Shown: piece after piece, positions 4,946-32,584 of the stretch
Numbering within the stretch: position 1 is the stretch's first letter
How the letters are laid out: every line of letters starts with the position of its first letter
From: an uncultured Methanosarcinales archaeon
GTDB taxonomy: Archaea; Nanobdellota; Nanobdellia; Woesearchaeales; JAGWAF01
Direction: 5' to 3'
DNA length: 64,000 bases
NCBI GenBank assembly: GCA_964597775.1
Contig: CAZQZJ010000001.1
Span: 6,033 to 70,032 of the forward strand
Notes under the pieces: model-generated
What the model saw: only the letters and a program-made list of their open reading frames with translations
What the model was told of the DNA's origin: nothing
The model's database searches: none
Program-made: the position numbers and the translations under genes

Positions 4946-5452
4946 TTATGCAAATACAGATACTAGTGTAAATGGTTTTTTTGTGCATGGTATTGGATTA
5001 TCTATAAACATCTTTGAAGGGCTTATGCATTTGCCCTTCTCTACTTCTACAGTACACTTGTTTTTAGTACGTTCTGTTGGGTTAAGATCACATGCATCAG
5101 GCATGCCATCTTCATCTTTATCACATTGATTTGATCCTCTTGCTTGTTCAAGAGCAATCCCTGTCTTGCCTCCTCCAAGTTGTGGAAAAATACAAAAGTC
5201 ACAGCTATCTGGTGCACAGTCACCATCTTTATCTAGATTGCTAATTGCACAAAAACCATTAGTCTGAGTTAAACCTCCTTGAATTACGCAGGATGTATAT
5301 CTCTTTCCTGAATCAAATACAGAAAGTTGGGTTGAAATTGTGTTCGAAGGTTTTGTAAAAATATGAAAAAGAACAATCACAACAAGCATGCTAAGAACAA
5401 AAATTGCAATAGTCTCAATTGAGAGTCCTTGTCCTTTCTTGTATAGCATCAT
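4946..5452 (-). CDS. pilin-like protein (class III signal peptide) with thrombospondin-type-3-like Ca-binding motifs
   Basis: MMLYKKGQ|GLSIETIAIFVLSMLVVIVLF is the archaeal prepilin pattern KG(Q) followed by a hydrophobic helix. Motifs DKDGDCAPD and DKDEDGMPDACD follow, and the protein is Cys-rich. Confidence 0.55.
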   Translation of the reverse strand: MMLYKKGQGLSIETIAIFVLSMLVVIVLFHIFTKPSNTISTQLSVFDSGKRYTSCVIQGGLTQTNGFCAISNLDKDGDCAPDSCDFCIFPQLGGGKTGIALEQARGSNQCDKDEDGMPDACDLNPTERTKNKCTVEVEKGKCISPSKMFIDNPIPCTKKPFTLVSVFA

Positions 5453-5700
5453 ATCTTATCAAGACAGCAGGTTCTCTTTTTTGAGTCCACATCTGAACAC
5501 GAGTAGGATATAGCTTTAAGTTGACAATTCTTGATTTGTTCAGAATCCTGACATTCTCCTCCTTTTTCTTCGCATCCAGATAATCCTGTTGAGAATTTGC
5601 CAGTTTGTCTTGTGAGGATAATACCAATAACTAACAAAATAAGTAGAACCAGGACAGCGACTACAATTGTTGAGAGTGCGAGTTCTTGGGCTTTACGCAT
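5449..5700 (-). CDS. small Cys-rich pilin-like protein (class III signal peptide)
   Basis: MRKAQELALSTIVVAVLVLLILLVIGIIL at the N-terminus, followed by a short Cys-rich globular tail. Confidence 0.55.
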   Translation of the reverse strand: MRKAQELALSTIVVAVLVLLILLVIGIILTRQTGKFSTGLSGCEEKGGECQDSEQIKNCQLKAISYSCSDVDSKKRTCCLDKI

Positions 5701-5726
5701 AGAGATTAGGGAATTGTGGTGGTATT

Positions 5727-6064
5727 TTAAGGCTTCGAAAATATTTCGCGAAGAATATAATGTGGTTTAATAATTATAATAATTGGTATGATAAGGTCTG
5801 TTGCTGTTTTGCCATATTCATAGATTCTATTTCCAAAGATAATTATAATAAGAAGAAGTGCAAGTAGTCCAAGCACAAGATATCCAATGTAATCAGTTAC
5901 TAAAAAGCCTTGTTTCAAAAAAACCACCGCATGTTGCTAAATATTTTTTGAAAACCGCCTTGTTGATAAGAGAGTATAGCAAGAATAACAAGAAGCATTA
6001 CAAGCATGAGGATAATGTACATCATATTGTCAGTAAGAAAGTCTCCGCGTTTGTTAGGGATCAT
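5727..6064 (-). pseudogene. small two-TM pilin-like membrane protein interrupted by a homopolymer (T7) frameshift
   Basis: The minus-strand reading MIPNKRGDFLTDNMMYIILMLVMLLVILAILSYQQGGFQKIFSNMRWFF stops at a T7 run (plus-strand A7 at 5917-5923). With T8 the frame continues into ORF 5727..5927 (LKQGFLVTDYIGYLVLGLLALLLIIII...). The MIPNKR N-terminus resembles ORF 49821. Confidence 0.35.
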
Positions 6065-6276: not shown

Positions 6277-7185
6277 TTATTTTTGACGTGAGATACCAAG
6301 TTCTGTGCAGCCTAATTGTTCAAGTTTTTGTTTGGTAAGTGGTACAAACCATGTTGATGCATACCATTGGTATGGGGTGTTTTTTAGATAGGCTAATACA
6401 GCTGCATATGCTGTGCTTCCTGTGGCTAGGATTCCTCCTGCTGTGGCAATGGTGAGTCCTGTTGTTGTACCTATAATTGGGATGACACTCATTATAAGGA
6501 TGCCTGCCTTGATCATGCCATATCCTGCAACCATGCCTGCTGCTCCTGGTGCTGCTGCTTCAAGATTTGTCATAAATATTTGAGTCATCTCGCCACGGCC
6601 TTTTGCATAGACAATGATTGTGGCATAGAGATCCTGTACTGCAGGGTCTATCATATCAGGTAGTTGTTTTCTGTTTTCCTCAATCTTATCAAGTTGCTGA
6701 CTTGTAAAAGTTGTATATCCACTAAGGTATTCTGCATAGGTGTGTTTGTTGTTTGGCATTTTGGTGGTGAGAAGATAGGTATTTAGTCCAGTAAGTGGTG
6801 TTGTTTTATCCTTAAATTCGATATAGGAACAAATTCCGCAATAGATGCCACTTCCTGCAAAAAGTTCTAGTTTGCCTTGGCCAAATCTACTCCAGCATGA
6901 TGTCATAGTTTGAGCAATGTCATATCGTGTTTTGTGCTGGGCTTCTTCAGATTGTATATCATTAATATACAGATTTTCAGTATCACAAGTAATTGCACTG
7001 CCAAAATCAAAGGATTTGGTGTGTAGCAGGGCTGCTTTGTAGATGCTATCCCGGCAGATCTCTGTTGGAATGCCAGATTCAACTGTTGAGAAAAGTTGGG
7101 ACCAATAGTAAATAGCAAGAAATAATGTGATAATTAAGATGATGATTCCAAGTGTTGTCTCATTGATGATATTTGCACGTTTCAT
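6277..7185 (-). CDS. pilin-like surface protein, paralog A
   Basis: The likely true start is the internal Met (MKRANIINETTLGIIILIITLFLAIYYW). It is paralogous to 7182..7940, sharing the conserved central Cys pair YCGICSYIEF / FCILCSRITT. Confidence 0.5.
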   Translation of the reverse strand: MKRANIINETTLGIIILIITLFLAIYYWSQLFSTVESGIPTEICRDSIYKAALLHTKSFDFGSAITCDTENLYINDIQSEEAQHKTRYDIAQTMTSCWSRFGQGKLELFAGSGIYCGICSYIEFKDKTTPLTGLNTYLLTTKMPNNKHTYAEYLSGYTTFTSQQLDKIEENRKQLPDMIDPAVQDLYATIIVYAKGRGEMTQIFMTNLEAAAPGAAGMVAGYGMIKAGILIMSVIPIIGTTTGLTIATAGGILATGSTAYAAVLAYLKNTPYQWYASTWFVPLTKQKLEQLGCTELGISRQK

Positions 7186-7940
7186 GCTAATGGCTCTGGT
7201 GTTTTTTGGTCTGGTAGTTGTTGATGAAACTCTGTGCAAGCAAGTAGTGGTATTTTAGTAGTTGGTAGAAATACTAGATGTGATTCAAATTTCTCTTGCA
7301 GTCTATTGATTGCAATTATATCATATGAGGTTTCTTTATTAATAGTTACTAGATCTGGTGCAGGGTTCTCGTTTGGAAATGGAAGTGTTTCTTGTTGTTG
7401 TGGATTAATAAAAAGGTGGTATAGTGCCTCAGTTCCCCATGTTGTGGAGAGGATTTGGGTATATGTTTGTTTGTGATTAGGTGGTGTTGTGCTGCGCAGG
7501 TATTGTTTTAGTTGTATGCTTGGTAGTGTGGTGCTTGTTGTAATGCGTGAGCAGAGAATGCAGAATGTGCCTGTGCCAATGCCTTGTGTTTGATATCCTA
7601 TCTTGTTGTTATTGCCATTTGTTTTATACCAGCATTCCCTAAGATGTTCTGCAATCCTAGATTTAATATTAAGGCTATCATCTCCTATAAGGGTTTCAAC
7701 ATGTGCTTCGCAGTTAATTCCTGGGTTTGATAATACTAGTTTTCCTGCTTTTCCTGCTGCTGTACTAATTTTGTTAAGATATTCAGTCTTAAGTCCTATA
7801 CTCAATTTGCATCGTGCATCTCTACTAATCTCTTCGTGGGACTGGGTGTATTTTTGGACCATGACAACTAAAGCAAGGATAATAATAAGGGGAACAATAA
7901 AATTAAGAAATGTGATTTGAACGGATTGCGCTTTCTTCAT
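7182..7940 (-). CDS. pilin-like surface protein, paralog B
   Basis: The N-terminus is MKKAQSVQITFLNFIVPLIIILALVVMV. It is a paralog of the downstream gene. Confidence 0.5.
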   Translation of the reverse strand: MKKAQSVQITFLNFIVPLIIILALVVMVQKYTQSHEEISRDARCKLSIGLKTEYLNKISTAAGKAGKLVLSNPGINCEAHVETLIGDDSLNIKSRIAEHLRECWYKTNGNNNKIGYQTQGIGTGTFCILCSRITTSTTLPSIQLKQYLRSTTPPNHKQTYTQILSTTWGTEALYHLFINPQQQETLPFPNENPAPDLVTINKETSYDIIAINRLQEKFESHLVFLPTTKIPLLACTEFHQQLPDQKTPEPLA

Positions 7941-8093
7941 AATACACCTGTTGTAAGTGTTTTGGTTTTAATGATGTTCCAAATCAACAGTAAGAAGATG
8001 ATAACCAGAATTGCCATGATAAGGTAAAATAGTGTAGATTCAGTCATTCCACGTTTTAACATACATAGACAATAAAAACAGGCTATTTAATTC

Positions 8094-8375
8094 TTACGAC
8101 CTTAGTTTGCAGCAGCAATGGGATCCTTCAGGTACATCGCTTATAAAGGCTGTAATCTCAGGAGTTTCGCTTGAGCAAGTTGTTGTCTGAACTGTACCTG
8201 AGGCATAACCACGATTTTCGCAGTTTGAATTGCATGTATTTTGTTCAACCTTGCTTACTCCAATGCCAAACTTGCCAAGTCTGCCAGTAAAGATAGCCAC
8301 AAGGACTACAAGTACAATAAGTGCTATTGCAGCAACAACAATGACTGTTACAGAAAGCTCCTGTGCCTTTTTCAT
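8094..8375 (-). CDS. small Cys-rich pilin-like protein (class III signal peptide)
   Basis: The N-terminus MKKAQELSVTVIVVAAIALIVLVVLVAIFTG is nearly identical to that of 5449..5700. Confidence 0.55.
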   Translation of the reverse strand: MKKAQELSVTVIVVAAIALIVLVVLVAIFTGRLGKFGIGVSKVEQNTCNSNCENRGYASGTVQTTTCSSETPEITAFISDVPEGSHCCCKLRS

Positions 8376-8441
8376 GAATTTTAACAGTATCCTAACTCTT
8401 ATATAAAGATTGGCATTTAAAAATTCGTTTTAAGCGAATTT

Positions 8442-8921
8442 TTACTCAGGATTTCTATCTTGCACCCATTCTGCATATTGTGGATTGCTCATAAAGTCTT
8501 GCTCTTTAATATCTTCGATTACATAGTGTGTAATCTTTTGTTTGATGCTAAACTGTGTTTCAAGTTGGTCAAAGAAGTGTTCAACCTCGCCTACATTAGT
8601 ATATATGCCTTCAAAGAGAAAGTCAAATCCGTTGTTTATTCTCCATAATGAATTAATGTTGGGGTGATGGAGTAGGTGTTGGCGTAGTGCATCTTTTTGG
8701 TTTTTATGGACGCTGATTAGGACGTATGCCTTTGTTGCAAATCCTAGCATGCCAAAATCAGCGATGATAGTATATTTTTTGATAAAGCGCGCTTTGAGTA
8801 GTCTTTCATAGAGGGTAGAAACTGGTATACCTGTTTTTTTGCTCATCTGGGTTAATTGCATACGTGCATTGTTGCGTAAATGGCATAAGATCATCGTGTC
8901 TTTTTTGTTCATGGTATTCAC
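8442..8921 (-). CDS. Lrp/AsnC family transcriptional regulator
   Basis: The HTH_AsnC N-terminus (ILCHLRNNARMQLTQMSKKTGIPVSTLYERL) is followed by a RAM-like C-terminal domain, 159 aa in all. Confidence 0.75.
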   Translation of the reverse strand: MNTMNKKDTMILCHLRNNARMQLTQMSKKTGIPVSTLYERLLKARFIKKYTIIADFGMLGFATKAYVLISVHKNQKDALRQHLLHHPNINSLWRINNGFDFLFEGIYTNVGEVEHFFDQLETQFSIKQKITHYVIEDIKEQDFMSNPQYAEWVQDRNPE

Positions 8922-9043: not shown

Positions 9044-9955
9044 ATGCAAAGACGAGCTATTCAATTAGCAAAAAATACTATTGTTATCTCTTTGCCATCC
9101 TCATGGATTAAACAAAAAGGAATTAAAAAAGGGGATGAGTTACGTGTGGAAGAAAGTGCAGGTTCTCTTGTTATTAGTACAGGCGCACAACAAGAGATAA
9201 AGAGACGAGTAGTAGATGCAACAGGTCTTACTGAGAGAACGCTGCGATGGGCTTTATCAGGATTACATAAACAAGGTGTTGATGAGATCGAAATCCAATA
9301 TGCCAACCCATTTACAGTACAGATAGTTCAGGATTTGATTCGAGACACCTTTCTTGGTTTTGCCTTGATTTCGCAAAAAGATAAGTCATTAGTTATTCGT
9401 CAGATCTCTCGTGATGCAGATGACCAATTTGATGTTGTGTTTAGAAGATCGCTGCTTGTAACCCTTTCTCTTACAGAAGGATTTGCTGATGCTCTGCAGC
9501 GCAAGGATTGGGAAGAGCTGACAAGTCTTGAATATCTGGAAAAAACAAATAATCAGCTTACTAATTTTTGTATACGTCTTATTCACAGAGGAGAAGCAGG
9601 TGCAGCTTATCCAATGATGTATCATACATTATTATGGAATATGGAAAAAATCGCTGATGAATACAAGCATATGATTCATAAGATTCCTAAAAAGCCTATT
9701 GTGCAAAGTCAGATAGTGCAGGCTATGAATGATACAGCAAGTCTATTGAGGTTATTCTATAACTGTTTTTATCAAGGTGATCTTAATAGTGTGAATGATG
9801 TTGCAGATAAGCGTGCTGCTCTGCAACACACTGTCCAAAACCTGTTGCATTCGCAACATGGATTTAGTAGGGATCTTGCACATCATACTCAGCAGGTTAT
9901 TACAAGAATTGGGGATCTTTGTTCATGTCTTGCTTCTATTCGAACCTATGGTTAA
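9044..9955 (+). CDS. AbrB/SpoVT-domain plus PhoU-like regulator
   Basis: The N-terminal swapped-hairpin motif (AIQLAKNTIVISLPSSWIKQKGIKKGDELRVEE) is followed by a helical PhoU-like region. This is the archaeal PhoU-homolog architecture. Confidence 0.45.
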   Translation: MQRRAIQLAKNTIVISLPSSWIKQKGIKKGDELRVEESAGSLVISTGAQQEIKRRVVDATGLTERTLRWALSGLHKQGVDEIEIQYANPFTVQIVQDLIRDTFLGFALISQKDKSLVIRQISRDADDQFDVVFRRSLLVTLSLTEGFADALQRKDWEELTSLEYLEKTNNQLTNFCIRLIHRGEAGAAYPMMYHTLLWNMEKIADEYKHMIHKIPKKPIVQSQIVQAMNDTASLLRLFYNCFYQGDLNSVNDVADKRAALQHTVQNLLHSQHGFSRDLAHHTQQVITRIGDLCSCLASIRTYG

Positions 9956-12900
9956 AGATGTGAGATAAGAGTATTTAATATCTGGGCTGCGCATTCTATA
10001 GTCGGATCTTTATCTCTATTAAGTGTTGTGATAATCTTTCCTGCGTTTTCAAGAATATCTTTTCGAAGTGATTGGTGGATAACACGGCTGCTCCATAGTC
10101 CAGACATGTAGAGTGATCGATAGTATACTGCTGCAATCAAGCTTTTTGTATATACTGGGAATGTTATTTTTTTAGCAAGTCGTGATGAATCATAGTAACA
10201 CCTGCCTATGGTTAGAATATCTTGTGAAGAAAGCTTTGAGTCAAAAAGGATAAGGCTTGCAATATCACAAGTCACTGGAAGTGTTTCATGTGCACTTCCC
10301 TTGTCAAGAGAGTATATCTTATTATTTTGAAGGATAAAATTATCTGGGTGAGCATCTTGATTTGGAGCTTGAGGTACAGTTTCAAGATATGGTTTGAGTT
10401 CATTCATCAAGGTAAGAGCCTGTTTCTTTATGTTGTGTGGAACATTAATGTCACTTATTCTTTTCTCCAATGATAAATTAATAGGTCTTGGTGTAGATGG
10501 TATCTTGATTTTGTGGAGTTGGGCTATAAAACGTGCAGCAGTAAGGTATTCATCTTGTTTAATTGTTCTTGATTTGATTCTTTCATACAAAGTTTCTCCT
10601 GGTATATAGGTTGTTACTAAAATTTGTTTTTCATTATGCTGCAAGACTCCGATAGGTTCTACAACATGATATTTTTCATCATAATCATCCTCATAATATG
10701 CCAGTGTGTTCTTGTATTCCTGCTTAGCCAGAACATCAGAATCATGTGTTTTAAATGCAAATGCGCGATTGATATACTCGCGTCCTGTATATACAAAAAC
10801 AGGATGTCCATGTTCCCCAAGCGAATCTCTTTGGAGTTTGGTATCAGTCATAATAAGTGATGCTGCATTCAGCAGATATTCAAGGCTTTTTTGTGGATTG
10901 GCATCTTTGAGTATTCTTCCTTGAAGTAGGTATACCTCTGTTTTAAGAGGGATGGTATCTATACATCGAGATGCTAGGTCAAGTGCTTCTTGGTTTTTTC
11001 CTAGTTGTAAAGCAAGAACCTCTGTTGATAAAAGTGCGCCGATGTCAGATGGATGTTCATTAATATATGCTTGAGTAGCTTGATACTGCTTTTGCCAAAT
11101 TCTCTGCGAATAAAAAGAAATAGCTAAGGAATTAAATTTGGTTGAGATACTAGCCTGTTCATAAAGAGTAAATGCATTCCCAAATTGGCCTGAATAAAAA
11201 GATAGAAGCGCTTGTCTAAAATTTCTCACAATTGGAAATTCCATAACCATATCATCTTCTGCTATAATTTTTGAGAGGTTTGGCAACGCCATGACCTGTT
11301 GATGTGATAAAAATAATGTAGACATTGAATAGAGTTTTGGCTTACGAAATACTCCCGCTATATTAACTAAATAATAAGTCAGGTATCCTATACATGGTGT
11401 GAAGAGAAGAGGTGCTATCCTTAGATCAGAGAAATTTAACAAAGACTGTATTGTGTAATCAATTTTATATGGTAAGTTTGAATAAAAAAAATAGGAAGAT
11501 GCTACAATAGAAGTAATAAATGGATATTCAGCCAATATATCTAAAGGTGTTGAACATATTCTAGTTAAAGTATTACAACGAAGAGATTCTCTCTGATCAT
11601 GTGGAAATCTCTGAAAACCTATCCATCCCAAAGTACAGAGGTACACCCCAAATAGAATTGAGATAAGATCTAGGTTGTTGAATGGATAATCAAGATTAGT
11701 ATAATTAATAATGCTATGTTGTCGCGTGTGTATATTTATAGATGCTATACCTTTGTATTTATCATCTTGCATACAGATTGCAGCTATCTGATTAGGAGAT
11801 ATCCATGATTGAAAGTATTCTTTATGGTTTGGCTGAGAAATTCGACGTATATGTTTATTTTCTAGGATTACAGATACATTTGCGTCTTCTGTATCCACCT
11901 CAATGATTCCTTCCTGAAAACAGATTGTTTTTGAGTCTGGTGAAAAAGAGATAATAGGAAAATTGACTGATTTGGCCATTTCAAGTTCGCGCAAACGAGT
12001 ACTTCTTTTATGCGGTTCATATATAATGATGTGCTCAAGTTTTTTTGAGTTAAGATCAAACAGCTCGATCTGATTTAGTCTGGTATAACGAGCATATCTA
12101 TTTCCATCAGGAGAACACGTAGATGGCGTGAGTGGTTCTGGAAGGTCTCTTATTTTTACAGGAGTATCTTTTTCAATTTTGTATAAAGCACCGTTAAAGA
12201 ACTCTGTCGAATTTCTTTGGTCCCATGACTCAAAAAAAATTCCTTTAGGTGTTGAAGCTATCATTCCAAGACTTCCTCTCACCTTGCAAAGATTCTTAGC
12301 ATATTCAAATGTTCTTAGGGTAATTGTTGATATATTACCTTCAATATAGCTACTAATCATCTCATGCTGATTTTTCCATATTGAATTAACTGGGTTTGGA
12401 AATGTTTGTGTTGCGAAGTTGTTAGTATTAAGAAATGTACCATGAGCAGAATCAGGATAACCATATATGAACAGTATAGACTGATCTGGAGAAAAGGATG
12501 TGTTGAAAAAGATGCTAGATCCACCAATAGTGATTCTTTTGTTATTATTAAGATCATAAAGAATATTCCTCTTTTTATGGGAATCATAGCTTAGTATATA
12601 ACTTCCTTTGCTTGAAACTTTAAGAACTTCTTCAAACTTTGCACAAGAGAATAATGGTGTGATATTTAATGGTGTAAATTTAGAAAGTGTATTTTCATAT
12701 TTTTCGTTTGATATGGTATCGAACAATGATTTTGACTTAACTTTAGTAATATGATGTGCAAAAAAGGTATCATAATTCTCAGTATATTGGCTTGTTTTAA
12801 ATGTTTGAATAAAAAGGTTTGCATAATTTCTCATGTTTGTGTATTTATCAAAAATTGAAGGAATGCCATACGAAAAACTTGCTATTATTCCTGTTGCAAT

Positions 12901-12957
12901 AAGTGCATACTTGATAGTTACTGCCTTTTTCTTAATCCTCTTCCATATTCTTCCCAT
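9952..12957 (-). CDS. large multi-domain membrane protein: N-terminal anchor, beta-propeller-like region, internal TM segments, TPR-like region, C-terminal APH/ChoK-like phosphotransferase domain
   Basis: 1001 aa. The C-terminus carries the HPDNFILQNNKIYSLDKGSAHETLPVTCDIASL kinase catalytic-loop motif (HxDxxxxN...D). There are PD40/WD-like repeats and hydrophobic stretches mid-protein. Confidence 0.5.
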   Translation of the reverse strand: MGRIWKRIKKKAVTIKYALIATGIIASFSYGIPSIFDKYTNMRNYANLFIQTFKTSQYTENYDTFFAHHITKVKSKSLFDTISNEKYENTLSKFTPLNITPLFSCAKFEEVLKVSSKGSYILSYDSHKKRNILYDLNNNKRITIGGSSIFFNTSFSPDQSILFIYGYPDSAHGTFLNTNNFATQTFPNPVNSIWKNQHEMISSYIEGNISTITLRTFEYAKNLCKVRGSLGMIASTPKGIFFESWDQRNSTEFFNGALYKIEKDTPVKIRDLPEPLTPSTCSPDGNRYARYTRLNQIELFDLNSKKLEHIIIYEPHKRSTRLRELEMAKSVNFPIISFSPDSKTICFQEGIIEVDTEDANVSVILENKHIRRISQPNHKEYFQSWISPNQIAAICMQDDKYKGIASINIHTRQHSIINYTNLDYPFNNLDLISILFGVYLCTLGWIGFQRFPHDQRESLRCNTLTRICSTPLDILAEYPFITSIVASSYFFYSNLPYKIDYTIQSLLNFSDLRIAPLLFTPCIGYLTYYLVNIAGVFRKPKLYSMSTLFLSHQQVMALPNLSKIIAEDDMVMEFPIVRNFRQALLSFYSGQFGNAFTLYEQASISTKFNSLAISFYSQRIWQKQYQATQAYINEHPSDIGALLSTEVLALQLGKNQEALDLASRCIDTIPLKTEVYLLQGRILKDANPQKSLEYLLNAASLIMTDTKLQRDSLGEHGHPVFVYTGREYINRAFAFKTHDSDVLAKQEYKNTLAYYEDDYDEKYHVVEPIGVLQHNEKQILVTTYIPGETLYERIKSRTIKQDEYLTAARFIAQLHKIKIPSTPRPINLSLEKRISDINVPHNIKKQALTLMNELKPYLETVPQAPNQDAHPDNFILQNNKIYSLDKGSAHETLPVTCDIASLILFDSKLSSQDILTIGRCYYDSSRLAKKITFPVYTKSLIAAVYYRSLYMSGLWSSRVIHQSLRKDILENAGKIITTLNRDKDPTIECAAQILNTLISHL

Positions 12958-12997
12958 TGGTAGGGTTATGGTATCTTATTTAAAAAAGAGTAAGATG

Positions 12998-25300: not shown

Positions 25301-28212
25301 TTTGTGATGACCGGAGGTTGATCTTGGACAATGAGGGTGAAATCCTCTCTTGTGTCCCTATTTTGGTTGTCTTTGCAACGGATAAGAAGAGGGAATCGTT
25401 TGTTTCTATTTTGTGGTCCGGAGATTATTTCATTGAAATTGAATTTGGTGTGGTGTACCCCGCTTGTTGTGTCAAACTCTTGCCATGATGTAAAATCTGT
25501 AGGAACAAAGACGCCAGGATTAAATAAGTATCTGCATGTGCTTTGAAAAAGTGTGTCTGCTAAAACATCAAAGGTAAAGTTTGGAGATGCTCCAAAAGGT
25601 GGTAGGACAAGTCTGATAGGGCTTGGATTTGCTGATACTATAAAATTAATATTAAATGTAAAGCGGTTTGCTGCAAGATCAGATCCTTTGATAACAAATG
25701 AGTTTGGTCCGTCAATGAGTTTGAGCAGTGCTGTATATATCCTATTTTGATTTGCAGAAGTGAAATTGGTTGTAAGTGATGTTTCTTCTATTCTACTGTT
25801 AAATAAATCAACAACCTGGTGAAGATTTGTTATGTTTTCAATAATAACTGGTTCTGTGAAATTGAGTAGGATGGTGTTTACTGATTTATTAAGTAGTGCT
25901 CCTTCAAGTGGTATAAGATTGGCAAAGGCGTTAATGCGTGGAGGTGTCAGATCTACAATAATACTGGTCAAATCAGACGTGTCCATTGGTGTGCCTTGGG
26001 TGTCACTTCCAAATACCTTAAAAGTGTAGCTTCCTTCGTTTAATGTTTGAATTGGAGAATATGTGAAATTGGTATTTGGAACAATGAGATTTTGTTGCGC
26101 ACCTATAATACGGCTAGGTGTTGATTGGATAAATTGTGAAACAGAGACTTGTGTGTTTTCGTTAAATGCAATGTTAATCTGTGGATTTGGATCGCTTGTA
26201 TGAAAGATGTTTCCAATCTTAATTGATTTGCTCACGTTTTTAGCATCTTGAAGAACAACTGGTCCTTGGCAGGATTTGCATGCAGTAAATGAAAATGTTT
26301 TTATTACCTCAAGATTATGATTAGGGTCTTCGCTAAAAAATCTGATGTTGTTTGTTCCCTCAGAAAGCTGTGCTTTAAACTCTTGCCCATCATTAAGTCC
26401 TAGATCATTAAGTAGAAGGTTGTCACTGGTGGTAGTTAGTGATGGTGTACATGGTTCTTTTCCCTCTGCAAACACACAGTACGTGGTTGGATTTAATTTT
26501 CCTGGAACCACTGCTTGAGTTGTTGTTGCATTAAAACGATCAAGCCTTGTGATATTAAGCGCATCAACTCTGCTTGGATTAAAATTACTAATTGAGATTA
26601 TAATGGTTTCTGGTGGAAAGTAATCAAGCTCGCAAGCGCGTGTTATACCACTTGAAAACCCGCTGCAGTCTCTAAAATCTCCTGGTGCATCGTCTATGGC
26701 ATTGGCATTTTTTGCGCATCTGTGTTGATCATTGAAGTCACAAACGCCAATATTGCATGGGTCAGAACTGCGAATGGTGATTTGGTTAAGATTGTTTTTT
26801 TGGATACCGACATTAGGTGCTGCGCATTCCTCTTTTGTATAATCTGGGCAGCTCACATCTTTGCAGCTTCTGCTTTTTTGGTCTTGGTTGCTAAAAAAGC
26901 ATGGGAATTTAGGTGTTGATAATGCCTCACTTCTTTCCTTTGTGCATGTATCAAAGATTTTGTTATTTACATCAAGGTTAGGTGCAAATGCAGTGCCGTT
27001 TACTTCGCATAAAAAGCAATTGTTTTGTTCAGTGTTAATGCAAACCCCAATTCCTATTGCTACAAAGACGTCCTTCCACTGGCAATTTTTGATACCGCAA
27101 TTATCTCTTGTGCATGTGTCTTTGCTTTTATAATCAAGGCATGCAAGATCTGATCTGCAAGGAAAGCAAAAGTCTATGAGTCGTGCGCTTTTATCATAAA
27201 AACAATATCTTGGATTTGTTGTCGCTCCTTCACATGCTTCAATAGAGATATTAAGCCCGAAATGTTGTGGAGAAACATTGCTGCATGGGTCTCTTTGAGT
27301 GCATTGTGGTGTGTTTTGGCGAACAATGCAGGTAGTTTCTGATGAGCATCGCAGGCGTTGCACAAGCAGATTCCTATCGGTGCAGGTGTATGCTGTGTTT
27401 GTTTTTGAAAAAAAGGTAATAGCAACCTGATCTTTGAATGCTTTTCTAAATTTGTCTGCAGTAGCTGGGGGAAGATACCCAAACTGTTTAAGATAGAATT
27501 CTTGTTCTTGGGTAGTGTAAAAACCAAGGCTAAGGCAGAATGGATCGCTGGTTGTTTTTCCATCGCATTCAAGATCTCCGCTGTATACTGTAGTTAGGGT
27601 AGGAACACTATTCCCAATGCCTTTGTATTGTGTGATGATTTGGTAGGTGTAGTTGTGATTATATTCAAGATTAGGATCAGCGTCAATAAACCCATTTTCA
27701 TTTCCAGAAATTACTCTGCTTGTGCTAAGATCGCGTTCTGTGCAAACGTTTCCAGAACATCGTGCAACTGAAAATGAATTGACAAATGAGGTGCAATTGG
27801 ATTTCCATGTAAGCTCGATTTCACGTTTTCCTTTAATTGGTGTAGAGGTTAGTTCAAAGACAGGTGGTTTAAAATCTGGATTTCCGCACACAAAGCTAAC
27901 ATTGATAAGTTCAGGAACCACGGTTGCAGTTTTGCATGCTTGCAAACAGATTTCTGAAAGTTTTACTGGTGGTGTGATATTTGTTGGCTGTACAAATGTG
28001 AAGTTTCGAGCTGTATCACATTTTGTTTCTTCAAGAAGAGATCCACTCTGTGCTGTACCATTAGAAAGGCAACAGCAGCCATTTCTTACTGCTGCAGAAC
28101 CAAACATTGGAAAGAGTAGTAGTAAGATGCTTACTAAAAAGAGTGTAATAAGAACTAATGTTCCTGATTTAATGTGCTGTTTTTTCTCTTGTTTTCTTGC
28201 TTCCATAGTCAT
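22375..28212 (-). CDS. giant (about 1945 aa) cell-surface protein: N-terminal signal, Ig/PKD-like and Cys-knot modules, about 10 thrombospondin-type-3 Ca-binding repeats, C-terminal TM anchor and charged cytoplasmic tail
   Basis: The N-terminus is LVLITLFLVSILLLLFPMFGSAAV. Repeated DxDxDG motifs are present (DSDGDGIPDDYE, DTDGDEAPDG, DPDGDGLTNLEEYKYL, DTDGDGFSDKDE, DTDNDGFSDYEE, DTDGDGYNDGKE). Cys-rich modules include CGGSCTPCEDGKKCKSNSDCTSVSC. The C-terminal TM is WPLWGTIIALLLLGGIGSYYWY. Confidence 0.7.
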   Translation of the reverse strand: MTMEARKQEKKQHIKSGTLVLITLFLVSILLLLFPMFGSAAVRNGCCCLSNGTAQSGSLLEETKCDTARNFTFVQPTNITPPVKLSEICLQACKTATVVPELINVSFVCGNPDFKPPVFELTSTPIKGKREIELTWKSNCTSFVNSFSVARCSGNVCTERDLSTSRVISGNENGFIDADPNLEYNHNYTYQIITQYKGIGNSVPTLTTVYSGDLECDGKTTSDPFCLSLGFYTTQEQEFYLKQFGYLPPATADKFRKAFKDQVAITFFSKTNTAYTCTDRNLLVQRLRCSSETTCIVRQNTPQCTQRDPCSNVSPQHFGLNISIEACEGATTNPRYCFYDKSARLIDFCFPCRSDLACLDYKSKDTCTRDNCGIKNCQWKDVFVAIGIGVCINTEQNNCFLCEVNGTAFAPNLDVNNKIFDTCTKERSEALSTPKFPCFFSNQDQKSRSCKDVSCPDYTKEECAAPNVGIQKNNLNQITIRSSDPCNIGVCDFNDQHRCAKNANAIDDAPGDFRDCSGFSSGITRACELDYFPPETIIISISNFNPSRVDALNITRLDRFNATTTQAVVPGKLNPTTYCVFAEGKEPCTPSLTTTSDNLLLNDLGLNDGQEFKAQLSEGTNNIRFFSEDPNHNLEVIKTFSFTACKSCQGPVVLQDAKNVSKSIKIGNIFHTSDPNPQINIAFNENTQVSVSQFIQSTPSRIIGAQQNLIVPNTNFTYSPIQTLNEGSYTFKVFGSDTQGTPMDTSDLTSIIVDLTPPRINAFANLIPLEGALLNKSVNTILLNFTEPVIIENITNLHQVVDLFNSRIEETSLTTNFTSANQNRIYTALLKLIDGPNSFVIKGSDLAANRFTFNINFIVSANPSPIRLVLPPFGASPNFTFDVLADTLFQSTCRYLFNPGVFVPTDFTSWQEFDTTSGVHHTKFNFNEIISGPQNRNKRFPLLIRCKDNQNRDTREDFTLIVQDQPPVITKFFADPNPIIQRPFKTTLKATTNIDTFCKFSNNTNQFDNMEHNFPGFNLIASTTHNAEIEVPQLSAYTFFISCKSASGLGPIAAQTTFRVDSSTTFKLQDNTPPNTIFAGESAIISIGSNKDSLCSYTGDETLLFVERQLTQNHLLTQIFSPGKHIVNTTCRTGGATVIGGQPENAAIQTPFGIDTQPPRMIFVRDDALSSNPQLTADRDRLRVIYNGSDPDSGVRRYEYQIRDQNNKIIKNLTADNNPEKEVIITGLQLTNQTRYFFDVRAVDFVERNSTFLASDGILVDTSVRPATCINNKTDGTETALDCGGSCTPCEDGKKCKSNSDCTSVSCDHNICGIPSCNDNLKNGNETDIDCGRTCPTCNTNKTCISNTDCSTGFCGQRGICQEPAPCQNKALDSGESDIDCGGACPSKCIEGKQCSTSTDCATGLSCQSSGSNDIKTCVDKNKDSDGDGIPDDYERRHNLNPSVPDAGEDPDGDGLTNDEEYQYFKKTGKEIDPQKRDTDGDEAPDGLEIGVGTDPLDPKSKPTNQDSDQDGMPDDWEKRHGLDPNNNADAKEDPDGDGLTNLDEYKYLKETGKEINPNKKDTDGDGFSDKDEINAGTDPTNENDYPGAGGKDTDLDGIPDEYEQRHGLDPKDANDATADPDEDGMTNLEEYNHFKETGQDIDPHKKDTDNDGFSDYEESQAGSNAVDDTSTPQDSDGDGIPDFFEKKYGLDPQNSDDAKSDPDGDGLTNLEEYKYFHEKNRFIDPQNSDTDGDGYNDGKELRAGSDPTNVLSVPLINWPLWGTIIALLLLGGIGSYYWYTQRKQTSTLPMPRIIQQQPKPVLKITGETPIQTAQRDIKSLPLEKQPKKKETEIEYQTLDNLTKTMEEHESPIFSQLRKSQEKDQPQLTPLQEIAFSRFTTEERKDIQEKLSLLRQGKLTAKEREKLFKKLRITAAYWEKNKDKIQKQSELWLRPQTTLKRTKKT

Positions 28213-28239
28213 TAATAAAAAAGGTACAATTATCTTTTT

Positions 28240-29664
28240 TTAAGTAACCTCAATATGATTGTTGAATCGAAGATCTTGCCAATCATCTAGTTCACCATCG
28301 CTTGCTTTTATACTAATTTGGATCATTTGTGCTTGTGGATTTTCCTGTAATTGTAGCCATTTAAGTGTTTCCTTTCCAATTAGTGTTTCTGCTTGGGTGT
28401 ATTCAATTGCTGTAGGATATTCAATTTTATAATAGAAAGTGACTTGGTTATCATCAGGGTCTAGTGCTTGAAGTGGTATGCAGATTTCCTGATCTGGCTT
28501 GCATCCAGCTCCATTAGTAATGCAAAATTGATTATTGTGGATAGTAATCTTTGGAGCAGAGTAGTCATCTTGATGAATTGATCCGCAGATATTAAAAGTG
28601 TTGAGCTTGCGATGTGTGGAATCATTTAGTAAGAATAATGCTGGTGGTCTGTTTTTTATGGCAAAACGAAGTTCATATGGTTGATCCAAAATGTTGCTAT
28701 GAGGATCTTTTGCAATGAGAATAGAGTCAAGTCCAAAAATATTTGGTTTGCGTTCAACTGTGATATTCTCTATTTGTTTTTCTGTAATATTAAATGCAAG
28801 ATCGCTTGTATCTGAATCAACAAGATATGAGGTATAGGTAATAAGCTGGCCTAAACGAACAGGATAATCTACTACAAATGTGCGAATCATTGCCTCTGCT
28901 CCTGTGGCTGTGTTGGTAATGTTGATTGGATATTCAAGTTGTACAAGTGTTGATGCAGTGTTAATAACAACAGAAAGATTCGGGTCTCCTTTACTAATCT
29001 TAAGGTTTTTAGTGGTGAAATAGCTCCAATCAATACAGCTTAGGGTTTTGGTTTGGATATAGGTTTCAAGTTGTTCTTGCATACTAATAGTGAATAGTTT
29101 GGGAAGGTGTGTTAGTAGGTTATATCCAGTAAGTGCATTAGTAGAGAAGATTGGTGTGGGTTGTGGCTGGCATACATCTGCTCCAGTTTCAAGATCAAGG
29201 CTGCATTCTTTTGCTGGTTGGTATTCAGGAAAACCATCCCAAGGGTATAAAGGGGGTTCGGTTTGATAAGAGAATATATCAGTTCCAATGCTTCCTTGTG
29301 CAGGAACAACAGCATAAGGAACATTATTTTTATCATAAACAAGATAGTTTTTGCCAAGGTCGTTTTTGGTATAATCTAAACTTGATCCTCCTTGACTGCG
29401 GTAGATAATTCCGCCTTGTTTTCCTGCAATGAAGAGTCCTGTTCTGGATGAAAGGTCTAAACAATCCAAAATATATTTTTTAAGTGGGATAATTTCTGTT
29501 TCAGAAAGCTGTTGTTTTGCAAGGTTTTGTTCCATGCTTTTTTTTTGAATGTTTTGACTAAAATAAAAAACTATTCCAAAAAGGAGAAGAATAAGTATGC
29601 ATAGGATCATAATACTACTGATTTGTGATCTTTTTGTCCATGTGGTTTTGTGAATTGGGTTCAT
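28240..29664 (-). CDS. membrane-anchored extracellular hypothetical protein
   Basis: The probable start is the internal Met (MNPIHKTTWTKRSQISSIMILCILILLLFGIVFYF). It forms a co-directional operon with the giant proteins. Confidence 0.5.
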   Translation of the reverse strand: MNPIHKTTWTKRSQISSIMILCILILLLFGIVFYFSQNIQKKSMEQNLAKQQLSETEIIPLKKYILDCLDLSSRTGLFIAGKQGGIIYRSQGGSSLDYTKNDLGKNYLVYDKNNVPYAVVPAQGSIGTDIFSYQTEPPLYPWDGFPEYQPAKECSLDLETGADVCQPQPTPIFSTNALTGYNLLTHLPKLFTISMQEQLETYIQTKTLSCIDWSYFTTKNLKISKGDPNLSVVINTASTLVQLEYPINITNTATGAEAMIRTFVVDYPVRLGQLITYTSYLVDSDTSDLAFNITEKQIENITVERKPNIFGLDSILIAKDPHSNILDQPYELRFAIKNRPPALFLLNDSTHRKLNTFNICGSIHQDDYSAPKITIHNNQFCITNGAGCKPDQEICIPLQALDPDDNQVTFYYKIEYPTAIEYTQAETLIGKETLKWLQLQENPQAQMIQISIKASDGELDDWQDLRFNNHIEVT

Positions 29665-29668
29665 GGTA

Positions 29669-32584
29669 TCAGATTCGTAATTTTGCTGTAAAGTCTCTCC
29701 ATATGTCTCTAAGATTGCCAAAATTGCTTGTGCTAAAGGCAATAAAACTCATGCTGGAATTGGTAAAGAGGCAGTCACGATTCAAATCTGAGTTGATCCT
29801 TGCATTAATAAGATCACAACTATTTTTGCCTGCTCGATCAGAAACATTGAGATTAATGTATCTTGCTCCAATATAATCTAAAGGAATTAGATTAAACCTG
29901 CTTTTTTCAAGAAATGCAAATAAATCCTTAGAAGCAACACGACTAATATAGATTGTGTCAAAGAGTGATGTTGTTGAGAAAAATCCTTGCTGATCAGCAA
30001 GCTGTGTTCGATTGCTAAACTCCACAAGATTAGAAAATCTGGTTTTAATAAAAGAGTCTCTTTGCGTGGTAAGTTCTAGGATATCGCTAGAGCTAAGTGT
30101 GCCTGTTGGTGTAAAAATAATGCTGTTAAGGTTTTGATTGTAATAAATACCGCTGCTGCATGAAGCAAAGCGATTTTCTGTAAAAGCTGTGTTGCAAAAG
30201 CGTGAGGATTTGCCAAGTGCTGTAAGAAAACTCTGTGTTGTGTCATTAATAGGTATATTAATGCTTACTCCAAATGCAACACCTTTGTTGTATCGTAGTA
30301 CGCAGAATTGATTTACGCAAGGAATAGATATATCATTTATTTTACAGTTTTCGCCTAGATACCTCTGAACAGGTCCTGCATTAGGAAAGGTTTCATATCC
30401 AACAAAGTTGAGAACCTCACCAAAATTATCGCAAAAAATACTGTAATTACGTCGCGATTGGGATTCTGCAAAATCAAGTAAGTATTCAGCAAGAATCTTT
30501 GTTCTGCTTGTCCAGTTTCCACGGTCACAGTAGTATTGTTTAATTGACTGTCCATTTGCAATGCAAGCAGGTTCTTGTTTAGGAATAGTTGTAAATGCAG
30601 TTTCTGGTTTATCATTATTGCTCAGGTTTCCAGCAGGATTGTATAAGCATTGTGTTTCTTCTGGACAAAATCCTGCTGCACTATTATCTGGAGTAGTTTT
30701 GATATCTTGTTTAATCCATTCACCGCCAATGCAGCGAAATCCGCCAGTAGTGCTTGGTTTAGTATCATTACGCTGATCATCAACGCATTTAATTCCTGAA
30801 AAACATTGATTCTGTGAACAGCATTCTGTAGTGATAGCAGTTGCATTAAGGTTAGGTGTTAATTGATCTCGAACTATAGAAGGAACGCTTCGTGGAAAGA
30901 GTTTATTTTGTTTTTGAACAAATGACCATGATCCGTTAAAGGAGCAGTAAAGATTGACATTTGCTGTGCGAGTGACATTATATGCAAGAGTGCAGCGGTT
31001 TGTATCGTTAATAAGTTGTTTATGTGTAAAATTATCTTTAATTAGTAAAAGTCCTGGGTTGGTTTCATTAAGTTGGCAGCCAAAGAACTGGCCAAGGAGT
31101 GCAAGCACGCTGCTATTTGTTTTATTGATTATAAATCCATTGCGTGCAAATGTGGAATTATAGCATGCGCCACTCTGGTCTTCAATATAATTTGGAGGAT
31201 CTGGATCATTATAGAATTCATTTATATCTTCTGCTTCTGAACAGCATTTAGTTCCTGTCCAACGTAGTCCAGCAGCAATGCATGTTAAAGAATCTTTGGT
31301 GTCAAGATCCTTTGTCCATTCAGCATCTTTGCTACAGTATAATGTTGGAGAGTCTCGATCTTGGCTAATACTTATTTTTAGAAAAGACGCAGCTCCAATA
31401 GCTCCCGAAGGGCCTGTATTGATAAAAAGTTCAATTGCATTAATCTGAACAAATCCAGTTCTGCGTTCTACTTTGTTATCAAGTGTGCAGCTTAAAACAG
31501 AGTTTTGTGTATCATAATCAAGGATAAGTGTATGTACTTCATTAGGTTTAAAGCTGCTGATGTCAAAACTTGTTTGGATAATGGTTGTTCCTGCAGTATT
31601 AAAACATCCAAGAGTAGTTCCTCTTTTTTCAATAGAGAGATATTTTTCTGGAGTTTCTTTTGCAAAGAAAAAAAAGCGATTAAGATCCTCAGATCCAGCC
31701 CATGTGTTTGTAAAGGTGAGTACAATATGTCCTTTGCTATTGTTATAATTGCCTAATGTACTGGTTTGTATAGTGTCTGTTGGACCAAGTGTTGCTGCAA
31801 AAAGCTCGCCTACAACATGATTTTCTCCAAGCATAGCGCTTCTTCCATTCTTTGTATTATAAGATCGATCATCTCCATTGCATTCGAGAATGGTTTGATA
31901 GGTGTCATTATTCTGAGGAGTGTCTTCTGCACAAAGGTACGAATGTGAAGCATAACGAAAACCTGGTTTACTGATATTGATAAGATTAAAGGTACCATAA
32001 TTGGATTTTATATTGCTTAGTAATCCGCAAGCAAGAAAGTCTGTGCCAGTAGAAACCACTTGAGCCTTGCCACAGTTGATATTAACAATGTCTGCTTTAT
32101 GTTTATTAAGTTCTACAAATTCCCAGTTTTCAGGTGTTGTAGAAGGGTTTGCACACAGCTCGTTACTAAATCTTTTTCCACAATTAGCTTCTGGGTGAGC
32201 ACCACAACAGGTAGCTGCGGGATTTGAAAAATTGACAGTCTTATTGCCAAAACAAATAGGAAGATCGATAAAGTTGTTTCCTCTGCAATACTGTTCAGTA
32301 TCCCAATTAACCTTGTGCGCATCTGAGATAATCTCTTGTGTACTATCAGATGATCCGCCTACCTTAAAATTAAGAAGATATTGACCTTCTTGTGTACACA
32401 CCTTATTTGCTATATCAATCGGAATCCGGCACTGTGCATTGCCAAGACACTCATCTGTTTGAATAGCTACTGAATTGTTATCAGGAAAAATAAGGCTTAA
32501 AATTCCGGTTTGAGCATTGACTAAGGAAGTGAATGCTAAAACAATGGTAATAATAAAAACAGATGTTATAATAATGGTACGCAT
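29669..32584 (-). CDS. large (971 aa) secreted Cys-rich surface protein
   Basis: The signal peptide is MRTIIITSVFIITIVLAFTSLVNA. The sequence has many Cys residues and is N/T/S-rich, consistent with a glycosylated surface protein. Confidence 0.6.
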   Translation of the reverse strand: MRTIIITSVFIITIVLAFTSLVNAQTGILSLIFPDNNSVAIQTDECLGNAQCRIPIDIANKVCTQEGQYLLNFKVGGSSDSTQEIISDAHKVNWDTEQYCRGNNFIDLPICFGNKTVNFSNPAATCCGAHPEANCGKRFSNELCANPSTTPENWEFVELNKHKADIVNINCGKAQVVSTGTDFLACGLLSNIKSNYGTFNLINISKPGFRYASHSYLCAEDTPQNNDTYQTILECNGDDRSYNTKNGRSAMLGENHVVGELFAATLGPTDTIQTSTLGNYNNSKGHIVLTFTNTWAGSEDLNRFFFFAKETPEKYLSIEKRGTTLGCFNTAGTTIIQTSFDISSFKPNEVHTLILDYDTQNSVLSCTLDNKVERRTGFVQINAIELFINTGPSGAIGAASFLKISISQDRDSPTLYCSKDAEWTKDLDTKDSLTCIAAGLRWTGTKCCSEAEDINEFYNDPDPPNYIEDQSGACYNSTFARNGFIINKTNSSVLALLGQFFGCQLNETNPGLLLIKDNFTHKQLINDTNRCTLAYNVTRTANVNLYCSFNGSWSFVQKQNKLFPRSVPSIVRDQLTPNLNATAITTECCSQNQCFSGIKCVDDQRNDTKPSTTGGFRCIGGEWIKQDIKTTPDNSAAGFCPEETQCLYNPAGNLSNNDKPETAFTTIPKQEPACIANGQSIKQYYCDRGNWTSRTKILAEYLLDFAESQSRRNYSIFCDNFGEVLNFVGYETFPNAGPVQRYLGENCKINDISIPCVNQFCVLRYNKGVAFGVSINIPINDTTQSFLTALGKSSRFCNTAFTENRFASCSSGIYYNQNLNSIIFTPTGTLSSSDILELTTQRDSFIKTRFSNLVEFSNRTQLADQQGFFSTTSLFDTIYISRVASKDLFAFLEKSRFNLIPLDYIGARYINLNVSDRAGKNSCDLINARINSDLNRDCLFTNSSMSFIAFSTSNFGNLRDIWRDFTAKLRI

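Follow-up and report, generated by a model that had tools for sequence, protein, structure and literature searches.

A syntenic island of pilin-like and giant surface protein genes in Woesearchaeota: candidate parts of a type IV filament-like adhesive apparatus

Gene content of the island

The DNA considered here is a stretch of 64,000 nucleotides (the window) from an uncultured Methanosarcinales archaeon, placed by GTDB in Archaea; Nanobdellota; Nanobdellia; Woesearchaeales; JAGWAF01, and covers positions 6,033 to 70,032 of the forward strand of contig CAZQZJ010000001.1 (NCBI GenBank assembly GCA_964597775.1). From about position 550 to position 32584, its minus strand carries an island of genes for pilin-like proteins, i.e., proteins whose N-termini resemble archaeal class III signals, together with giant and large surface proteins; 24 genes were counted in positions 1-32584. 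An initial annotation, made from the sequence letters, had drawn the island from 4946 to 32584, as pilin-like proteins interleaved with giant adhesin-like proteins and lacking motor genes. As a coherent class-III-signal-like locus with large surface proteins and no motor genes the description holds, but its size and gene count were understated. The left boundary at 4946 was too short: the locus reaches at least to position 551, which adds the genes of a 509-amino acid (aa) protein, a 341-aa Amidase_3 protein and a 162-aa protein, and beyond the window start the module goes on with genes for 201 and 395 aa. Three tiny conserved open reading frames (ORFs), at 7937-8047, 5915-6064 and 5727-5927, had been overlooked; two ORFs of 500 and 372 aa that had been listed among the interleaved surface proteins are real, but encode class-III-like proteins themselves. 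The ORFs that had been named all exist on the minus strand, and their junctions are tight or overlapping (5449/5452, 20275/20282 and 22375/22375; depending on the choice of start, also 7182/7185 with the 302-aa start and 29664/29669 with the 474-aa start). On account of this orientation, the coordinates given as their starts are 3' ends.

For comparison, related loci (individually designated L006, L008 and so forth) were collected with the 350-aa family of this island as a marker, by a pattern scan of GTDB species genomes. At least 184 of these genomes encode the marker, and 80 of the loci were fetched. Relatives of single proteins were sought by tblastn in 94 related loci, gene order was tabulated in 40 GTDB loci, and 1.4 Mb of related loci was used for a motor scan.

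The island is characterized by a common N-terminal design, found in 14 to 16 of the 24 genes, which consists of a short basic stretch, [K/R]-[G/A/S], usually a Q, and then a hydrophobic helix of about 20 aa. The small residue (position -1) stands before, not after, the helix in these 14-16 proteins, the placement of a class III signal. The basic N-terminus, the [KR][GAS] motif and the helix are present in all eight small proteins for which such N-termini had been proposed; the residue after the small one is Q in seven of them and N in the 302-aa protein (6277), and Q takes this place in 10 proteins of the locus altogether. A test combining the motif with hydropathy, which is a pattern test rather than a trained predictor, was positive for 15 of 24 genes in 1-32584 and for 1 of 29 elsewhere in the window (Fisher p = 2.6e-6). 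The 15 positives include the 1945-aa giant described below, though it is read as Sec-type from its relatives, and the sole positive outside the locus is a 387-aa protein at 49821-50984. Most of the proteins listed for the window and five related loci have the motif as well, as do most genes of the 40 tabulated loci. A Q at +1 is a documented feature of the EppA-processed DUF361 proteins of Methanococcus (PMC2910488). The locus proteins likewise have an E or D at +2 to +6, but the exact QXSXEXXXL spacing of the EppA/DUF361 motif is absent.

A set of four pilin-like genes, encoding proteins of 171, 350, 166 and 354 aa, stands beside the gene of a TSP3-bearing giant in some 30 of the 40 tabulated loci. 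The first of the set in the window is the 171-aa protein (21860..22375, on the minus strand like all features below that are not marked otherwise; MKQG/QVIGQALLFVLGAIIF, in the N-terminus table MKQG/QVIGQALLFVLG, with a slash after the small residue), which has relatives in 68 of the 94 loci. The 350-aa marker protein (20757..21809; …ISRG/QLEVPLNWLFTLIAGAIIL, also given as …ISRG/QLEVPLNWLFTLIAG) lies in a 372-aa ORF extending to 21875; its AlphaFold2 (AF2) model, made from 7 sequences, is poor, with a predicted local distance difference test (pLDDT) score of 60, and Foldseek returned no fold match for it. The 166-aa protein (20275..20775; MKHA/QIQMFETIAVLLIFFFL, in the table MKHA/QIQMFETIAVLL) has relatives in 86 loci. 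The 354-aa protein (19218..20282; …RKQA/QMEIMGLTIIVIL) ends in four modules of about 44 aa, the Cys modules that had been noted earlier, and its N-domain has relatives in 74 loci. Its homologues measure about 155-200 aa, and the L011 orthologue, at 164 aa, leaves no room for the Cys modules. Upstream of the set and of the giant lies the gene of a 474-aa class-III-like protein (28240..29664; …TKRS/QISSIMILCILILLLF, also written …TKRS/QISSIMILCIL), whose ORF (500 aa) extends to 29742 with the Met at 29664 as the likely start. Relatives of this protein were found in 27 loci, and many related loci have a class-III-like gene of about 400-460 aa just upstream of the giant.

The six-Cys module itself reads CTESWxCTxF…C…RxCTDxNxCGT…KP…C over about 44 aa and has no match in Pfam. 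It is present in two adjacent genes, with four copies in the 354-aa protein (19218-19750) and two in the 2069-aa giant (13800-14080). The copies are up to 69% identical, which suggests a recent exchange of modules between the neighbors.

The 1945-aa giant (22375..28212) has the layout of a type I membrane protein, with a Sec signal, a GCCC motif, a large ectodomain, TSP3 repeats, a transmembrane (TM) helix and a tail. Both the TSP3 repeats and the C-terminal TM helix that had been ascribed to it are borne out, the former by a match to TSP3_bac (PF18884) at 2.7e-34 and 117 bits against a cut-off of 25. Eleven Ca-binding repeats of the form DxDxDGxxDxxE occupy residues 1424-1741, directly before the TM helix (WGTIIALLLLGGIGSYYWY), and a charged cytoplasmic tail of about 170 aa follows it. 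Relatives of this giant are present in 69 of the 94 loci, and across loci, 40 of 48 TSP3-bearing giants are built alike: they have a Sec signal, in many cases a GCC(C) motif, and TSP3 repeats placed immediately ahead of a C-terminal TM helix, which is followed by a tail of 125-290 aa. The other giant, a right-handed beta-helix protein of about 2058 aa (12998..19174; a 2069-aa ORF with an ambiguous N-terminus, HQTQYEIGIVLLLIL), matches Beta_helix (PF13229) in four stretches (2e-8, 34.4 bits against 25.9), in agreement with the fold initially assigned to it, and NosD weakly. It contains 96 N-X-S/T sequons, and its two 44-aa six-Cys modules lie at residues 1711-1802. None of the 94 related loci holds a relative of it; among the giants, it alone is specific to the source genome, as an insertion. 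No S-layer family was matched by the giants in Pfam or NCBIfam.

Two further large proteins belong to the island. The first is a Cys-rich secreted protein of 971 aa (29669..32584) with 40 Cys and a Sec-type signal (…SLVNA/Q), which has relatives in 22 loci and no family in Pfam or NCBIfam. The second, of 1001 aa (9952..12957), has an N-terminal hydrophobic segment and a weakly kinase-like (APH) C-terminal region; it has relatives in 5 loci, among them the close relatives L011 and L017, and no sequence match in the PDB.

At the other end of the size range, a short Cys-containing pilin-like protein of 93 aa (8094..8375; MKKA/QELSVTVIVVAAIALIVLVVLVAIFTGRLG, in the table MKKA/QELSVTVIVVAAIALIV) is a candidate for the major subunit. 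Its family comprises at least 174 clusters, whose listed members carry no Pfam domain and are named "hypothetical protein" or unnamed. In the family alignment, KKAQG-S-N and IIIAAIALIVLVVLVAIFTGRLG are near-invariant and the head varies around conserved Cys, a pattern that resembles the conservation of a major pilin. The AF2 model (pLDDT 79) has a 36-residue N-terminal helix (9-44) and a small head, and the family profile produced a single match in the PDB, to the N-terminal helix of the Cuniculiplasma archaeal filament subunit 8REY, which is not significant (E = 0.28). A TATA-like CTTTATATAA lies about 25-30 nt upstream of the ATG (window 8376-8410) and a T-run, TGTTTTTATTG, just past the stop codon (8060-8093). 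These elements suggest a separate, possibly leaderless transcription unit, and would fit a subunit that is expressed separately and strongly. An 83-aa paralogue, also short and Cys-containing (5449..5700; MRKA/QELALSTIVVAVLVLL), is 35% identical to the 93-aa protein and 56% to an 80-aa protein of L011.

The remaining genes of this part encode larger pilin-like proteins and tiny ones. The 252-aa protein (7182..7940; MKKA/QSVQITFLNFIV), 35% identical to an L011 gene product, and the 302-aa protein (6277..7185; MKRA/NIINETTLGIIILI), with relatives in 18 loci, are encoded by paralogous genes, and a 168-aa protein (4946..5452; …YKKG/QGLSIETIAIFVL) has 10 Cys and a TSP3-like motif, its counterpart in L008 having a weak TSP_3 match. 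The tiny ORFs (36 to about 66 aa) were missed by gene callers, one of which put a 79-aa gene on the opposite strand instead. They comprise a 36-aa hydrophobic peptide (7937..8047) whose stop codon shares an ATGA with the start codon that follows, a pilin-like protein of 49 aa (5915..6064; MIPNKRG/DFLTDNMMYIILMLVMLLVIL, also given as MIPNKRG/DFLTDNMMYIILMLV…), and a second pilin-like ORF of at most 66 aa with an uncertain start codon (5727..5927; …LKQG/FLVTDYIGYLVLGLLALLL). Counterparts of similar size occupy the same positions in L008, L011, L013, L015 and L097. For instance, L011 has a 36-aa ORF at the position matching 7937-8047, and the 49-aa protein resembles, by eye only and with no BLAST match, a 49-aa pair in L011 and 46-52-aa genes in the other four. 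Proteins of 46-52 aa, hardly more than signal and helix, thus recur across related loci.

Two putative regulators interrupt the series. A 156-aa Lrp/AsnC-type protein (8442..8912; HTH_24 and AsnC_trans_reg) is conserved in position and has relatives in 17 loci, and a 303-aa AbrB/MazE-type DNA-binding protein (9044..9955, plus strand; MazE_antitoxin 5e-5), which is divergent from the operon and likely a local regulator, keeps its position in L011 and L099 and has relatives in 19.

The distal module consists of three genes within the window. The 509-aa protein (2058..3587) has an N-terminal anchor or class-III-like start and a weakly TPR-like C-terminus, and is 30% identical to a 650-aa protein of L011. 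The 341-aa protein (1036..2061; MNKRG/QSELFDITMVLF) is a pilin-like protein fused to an Amidase_3 (MurNAc-L-Ala amidase) domain. Its match to PF01520, at 28.4 bits against a cut-off of 27, is barely above threshold; all three sequence matches in the PDB are amidases, the best being AmiC (4BIN, E = 0.029), and the DPGHGG and SIH motifs are in register in the AmiC alignment. The L011 orthologue retains both His motifs, which are degenerate in distant orthologues, and the L099 counterpart has an unmarked Amidase_3 match. The third protein, of 162 aa (551..1039), has the N-terminal design of the pilin-like proteins as well (MSKG/TLSSWTIGWIWSFIYLIAV, also written MSKG/TLSSW…).

Conservation and genomic setting

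The initial annotation left the choice between a conserved and a hypervariable locus to comparative genomics, and the comparison shows a conserved island with the same gene order. This order is kept in L006, L008, L011, L013, L015, L097 and L099 as well as in the 40 tabulated GTDB loci. It starts with a class-III-like gene of about 400-460 aa and a giant of 950-3158 aa with TSP3 motifs, which often has a second giant before it; four class-III-like genes of about 160-190, 340-370, 160 and 160-180 aa follow, and then short pilin-like genes of about 85-115 aa, others of about 250-400 aa, tiny ones of 45-55 aa and a distal module. In fully read loci, the island ends at an RPA gene (tRNA_anti-codon/Rep_fac-A_C), followed by YdjM and RadA where the flank is long enough. 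The combination of genes is not idiosyncratic, but that of a syntenic island widespread in Woesearchaeota/Nanoarchaeia (at least 184 species genomes encode the marker). An impression that the 350-aa family is very rare was also rejected: its 7 relatives reflected a word-index search, and the GTDB scan produced 184 genomes.

The identities to the orthologues of the close relative L011 are: RPA 70%, the 93-aa protein 69%, the AsnC-like protein 63%, YdjM 58%, the 83-aa protein 56%, the 166-aa protein 55%, the 171-aa protein 52%, the 354-aa protein 49%, the 350-aa protein 48%, the TSP3 giant 47%, and the distal proteins and the 1001-aa protein 41-25%. This profile indicates an old, vertically kept island with fast-evolving ectodomains. 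A hypervariable adhesin island was considered and rejected, since the TSP3 giant (47%) is close to its neighbors (48-55%), foreign base composition is lacking, and only the beta-helix giant is unique. The giant TSP3 protein is not a hypervariable adhesin but a conserved type I membrane protein diverging at the rate of its neighbors. What the source genome has added is the beta-helix giant and, in the 354-aa protein, the extension by Cys modules.

The homologues are almost all labelled Woesearchaeota, Nanoarchaeia or Nanoarchaeota. Many of the locus records, which include L018, L021, L022 and L024, are titled "uncultured Methanosarcinales archaeon", and one "Candidatus Binatia bacterium"; on a Woesearchaeota-type locus, such titles are probably placeholder names or mis-binned contigs. 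The flanking genes of the window are archaeal by Pfam (RNase P p30, RFC, PAN proteasomal ATPase, FEN1, tRNA-intron endonuclease, aRF1/eRF1, PheRS alpha and beta, and Pta-Ack). Exact protein matches lead to Hainich groundwater assemblies (ENA ERZ1292634 and ERZ1292639) and to an NCBI metagenome-assembled genome named "Nanoarchaeota archaeon" (locus tags AABX52_03530 and AABX52_03565), and the source is accordingly a DPANN archaeon belonging to the Woesearchaeota. The G+C content is 34-40% throughout the window with no compositional island, and scans of the 64 kb found no tRNA genes and no Rfam matches.

Three other features of the window deserve mention. Within the island, on the opposite strand, a 291-aa protein with a signal-like N-terminus (4028-4903, plus strand) has no relative in the 94 related loci and no Pfam match, and is on these grounds a genome-specific insertion, like the beta-helix giant. 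Between the island and a peptidase-like gene lies a plus-strand cassette (32672-36046), whose products are an HxsD-like protein of 110 aa (precomputed PF27806), a 480-aa radical SAM/SPASM enzyme, a Hydantoinase_A-like protein and a peptide of 102 aa that is rich in Cys, His and Gly and ends in …CHSNCAGIRSEQGMHIGQHAHNIEQGGSCPPPGGGGGGGGGGYC; the cassette resembles a peptide-maturation system of the His-Xaa-Ser type, or one resembling those of ribosomally synthesized and post-translationally modified peptides. A second small cluster of surface protein genes (49821-55922, plus strand) opens with the 387-aa class-III-like protein mentioned above (49821-50984; MIPNKRA/QPANEAWVLVGL…). It also encodes a protein of 559 aa, which has five TM segments in its N-terminal part and matches nothing in Pfam even at E <= 10, and three paralogous lipobox-like proteins of 332, 311 and 317 aa, with 23-25% identity between neighboring pairs.

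A type IV filament-like reading and its alternatives

The island is interpreted here as the structural (non-motor) gene set of a type IV filament-like adhesive apparatus of Woesearchaeota whose motor is encoded elsewhere, a reading that is probable and well short of secure. Under this reading, the precursors would insert into the membrane by their hydrophobic helix, and an A24-type peptidase, possibly a 553-aa protein encoded near the island, would cut before the Q. A PilB/FlaI-type ATPase and a platform protein encoded elsewhere would then polymerize the subunits. The 83- and 93-aa proteins, perhaps together with the tiny ones, could form the shaft, and the 171/350/166/354 set could act as a priming or tip complex, by analogy with the bacterial minor pilins beside PilY1. 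Ca-dependent adhesion to a surface or a partner cell would be the task of the 971-aa protein and of the two giants, type I TSP3 and beta-helix. The Amidase_3 protein would act on a peptidoglycan wall, and the Lrp/AsnC and AbrB/MazE-like genes within the island may regulate it. A role in host attachment is plausible from the TSP3, beta-helix and pilin-like amidase proteins and from the DPANN lifestyle. In cryogenic transmission electron microscopy, pili-like appendages join ultrasmall groundwater cells to their hosts (PMC7906910).

The 553-aa protein (36025..37686) lies 3.4 kb from the locus and had been called its processing peptidase. It is a fusion of a polytopic membrane domain of about 245 aa with FlaK-like Asp motifs and a prenyltransferase/squalene-cyclase-like toroid. 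The motifs in the membrane domain (residues 1-245) are IITSYED19HYYHKIKNY and RGGD75AKLF; in a global alignment with FlaK (PDB 3S0X), they fall on IIASVQD18FRSREIEDY and GGGD79GKM (z = 4.1; 0 of 2000 shuffles reach the score). The two collinear Asp motifs thus speak for the assignment, but the domain matches no family and the adjacency to the locus is not conserved, so that the protein is possibly an A24-type or class III signal peptidase whose link to the island is uncertain. The toroid (residues ~250-553) has 1291 relatives in total, and all 149 other relatives listed align to the toroid only, most of them standalone proteins of about 340 aa. Among these, the fusion of a FlaK-like membrane domain with the toroid appears unique.

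Several results weigh against a filament. None of the curated profiles for pilins, archaellins or class III signals (Pilin_N, Class_IIIsignal and Arch_flagellin of Pfam, and the NCBIfam equivalents) is matched by a locus protein, and a Pfam search with 74 members of the 93-aa family at E <= 1 returned only non-specific TM matches and no pilin profile. An approximate FlaFind-type pattern, [KRDE][GA][ALIFQMVED][ILMVTAS]x3, fits none of the pilin-like proteins of the locus, because they have E, G, S or Q at +2 to +4. Structure searches, which were uninformative, gave no pilin fold match. Nor is the conserved giant, of type I membrane topology with a tail in the cytoplasm, a filament subunit. As for the peptidase, the membrane domain of the 553-aa protein has no Pfam match even at E <= 10, NCBIfam matches concern the toroid region only, phmmer against the PDB found nothing relevant and BLASTP against FlaK was not significant. 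No GxGDxK membrane ORF was found near the related loci, and with nothing like the 553-aa protein there, its proximity in the window may be coincidental. The motor is missing from the same neighborhoods. In agreement with the initial annotation, Pfam found no FlaI/PilB-type ATPase or FlaJ/TadC platform gene (T2SSE/T2SSF-type) in the 64-kb window, and none of the T2SSE/FlaI and T2SSF/FlaJ families occurs in the 7 kb to its left. The secretion-ATPase Walker A motif GxTGSGK[ST] is absent from the window and from 1.4 Mb of related loci, where the P-loop ORFs of at least 350 aa are limited to an MCM-like protein and PAN. None of the fetched loci therefore encodes a motor within 10 kb of the marker, and the link of the island to a motor is conjectural. 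On the other side, flaI, flaJ and flaK are reported in most Woesearchaeota metagenome-assembled genomes of one study (PMC11606122), and standalone archaeal pilin loci apart from the core machinery are known, as is the under-counting of pilins by profile searches (bioRxiv 10.64898/2026.04.22.720090).

These observations can be read in another way, in which the proteins are uncleaved N-terminal signal-anchor (type II) envelope proteins and the K/R-G/A/S start reflects ordinary positive-inside topology. The proteins would remain in the membrane and, with the TSP3 giant as perhaps an S-layer or envelope protein, build a lineage-specific envelope or contact patch with no filament or motor. The lack of motor genes within 10 kb in any related locus and of pilin profile or fold matches would then be expected, and the membrane anchor, conservation and synteny of the giant are what one would expect of a structural envelope protein; moreover, a resemblance to S-layer proteins is reported for the accessory proteins encoded in type IV filament loci of archaea (bioRxiv 10.64898/2026.04.22.720090). 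Generic anchors, however, would not keep a near-invariant 25-residue helix in proteins that are 40-50% identical overall, nor a fixed small residue and Q, and the proteins of 46-52 aa, with little beyond motif and helix, suit filament subunits rather than anchors. The giants, as noted, match no S-layer family. An envelope of this kind is thus rather unlikely, yet it is to be taken seriously. A reading of lower probability is an envelope machine other than a classical pilus, conserved throughout the lineage, in which some 15-20 pilin-like subunits, the Ca-binding type I giant with its tail coupled to the cell interior and a tethered amidase would dock onto and breach a bacterial host wall, with a distant motor or no dedicated PilB-type ATPase.

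The similarity of the four-gene set, with its one larger member, to the GspH-I-J-K or minor-pilin sets of bacterial systems also invites comparison with a pseudopilus of a type II secretion or competence-like machine, that is, a short piston or DNA-uptake fiber with which a genome-reduced archaeon exports the giants or imports DNA or nutrients, adhesion being at most a secondary role. DPANN archaea lack many biosynthetic pathways, which would favor such uptake. On the other hand, the locus was found to hold neither a nuclease nor a ComEC-like channel nor a DNA-binding domain, TSP3 and beta-helix domains are typical of adhesion proteins, and the giants need no dedicated secretion system, since they have Sec-type signals and a TM anchor; a pseudopilus is accordingly held to be improbable. 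An artefact, whether of spurious ORFs or of unrelated membrane protein genes lying side by side by chance, could draw on the uncertainty of some starts and on the three tiny ORFs uncalled by gene finders. Against it stand homologues in the same order across dozens of divergent genomes, the strong motif enrichment and the uniform base composition of the window, and it may be practically dismissed.

The locus, at its fixed genomic position, offers a conserved candidate gene set for the recognition and holding of partners by DPANN archaea, which are largely unknown, in a group of which we know of no cultivated representative. These pilin-like families would escape any survey of type IV filaments in archaea that relies on profiles, and the pilin-like and giant proteins with source names are all annotated "hypothetical". 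The pilin-like Amidase_3 protein raises the possibility that some lineages target peptidoglycan-walled (bacterial) partners, on whose walls, speculatively, the apparatus would act. The four-gene set beside a giant Ca-binding membrane protein would also be of use as a comparison for the bacterial minor-pilin/PilY1 paradigm.

Comparison with known systems

A search of the literature, which was not exhaustive, found no paper describing this locus, and no curated family covers its pilin-like members; the initial view that the combination is not a described system is upheld to that extent. In the Sulfolobales bindosome, enzymatic or binding domains stand behind a class III signal and helix, as the Amidase_3 and the TSP3/Cys-module proteins do here, but the cargo domains differ and the locus has no substrate-binding-protein or ABC-transporter context. 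The Saccharibacteria of the candidate phyla radiation (CPR) resemble the source organism in lifestyle only, as ultrasmall, genome-reduced episymbionts. Their pilin-based filaments are reported to be used for host binding (PMC9894109, PMC11623550). The machinery is bacterial, its motor genes are identified and its function is genetically proven. TSP3 surface proteins provide a further parallel, as the 1945-aa giant has repeat-level NCBIfam matches to MtsD (7.6e-21) and CglD (2.1e-15) of Myxococcus, and to Amuc_1099_fam (3.5e-17, 63 bits against a cut-off of 50, over 32 of 321 profile positions), which are named as proteins of cohesion, gliding-adhesion or pilus-like systems. These matches span the repeats only, the rest of the giant matching nothing curated, and they are not evidence of orthology.

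In organization, the closest analogue is the bacterial minor-pilin/PilY1 operon. As is established for fimU-pilVWXY1E and GspH-K, four pilin-like genes, one of them larger, have as their neighbor the gene of a large surface protein that binds Ca and is not a pilin, the motor genes lying elsewhere, and the role that may be shared is that of a priming or tip complex presenting an adhesin. No sequence or fold similarity was found between the two, however, and in this archaeon the giant is a type I protein with TSP3 repeats, TM helix and tail, and not a beta-propeller.

The closest known system is the Epd/EppA system of Methanococcus (system 1), which is reported in some DPANN (bioRxiv 10.64898/2026.04.22.720090). 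The Epd pili of Methanococcus maripaludis resemble the locus in their class III signals, which have a Q at +1, and in combining several minor pilin-like proteins with a major subunit (here a candidate) that is very short and has no large globular domain; a dedicated peptidase distinct from FlaK may be a further common feature. The Epd cluster, in contrast, holds an ATPase and two platform genes, whereas no secretion-type ATPase motif lies within 10 kb of the marker here; the locus proteins have neither the exact QXSXEXXXL spacing nor a DUF361/Class_IIIsignal Pfam match, and the locus has some 15-20 such genes plus conserved giants. Compared with all of these systems, the island is distinctive in having about 15-20 class-III-like genes in a row, separated from motor genes in every fetched locus; in the pilin-like proteins that carry Amidase_3, TSP3 or Cys modules and fall outside every curated pilin family; and in a conserved TSP3 giant, a type I membrane protein whose tail is cytoplasmic, as the fixed partner of the four-gene set.

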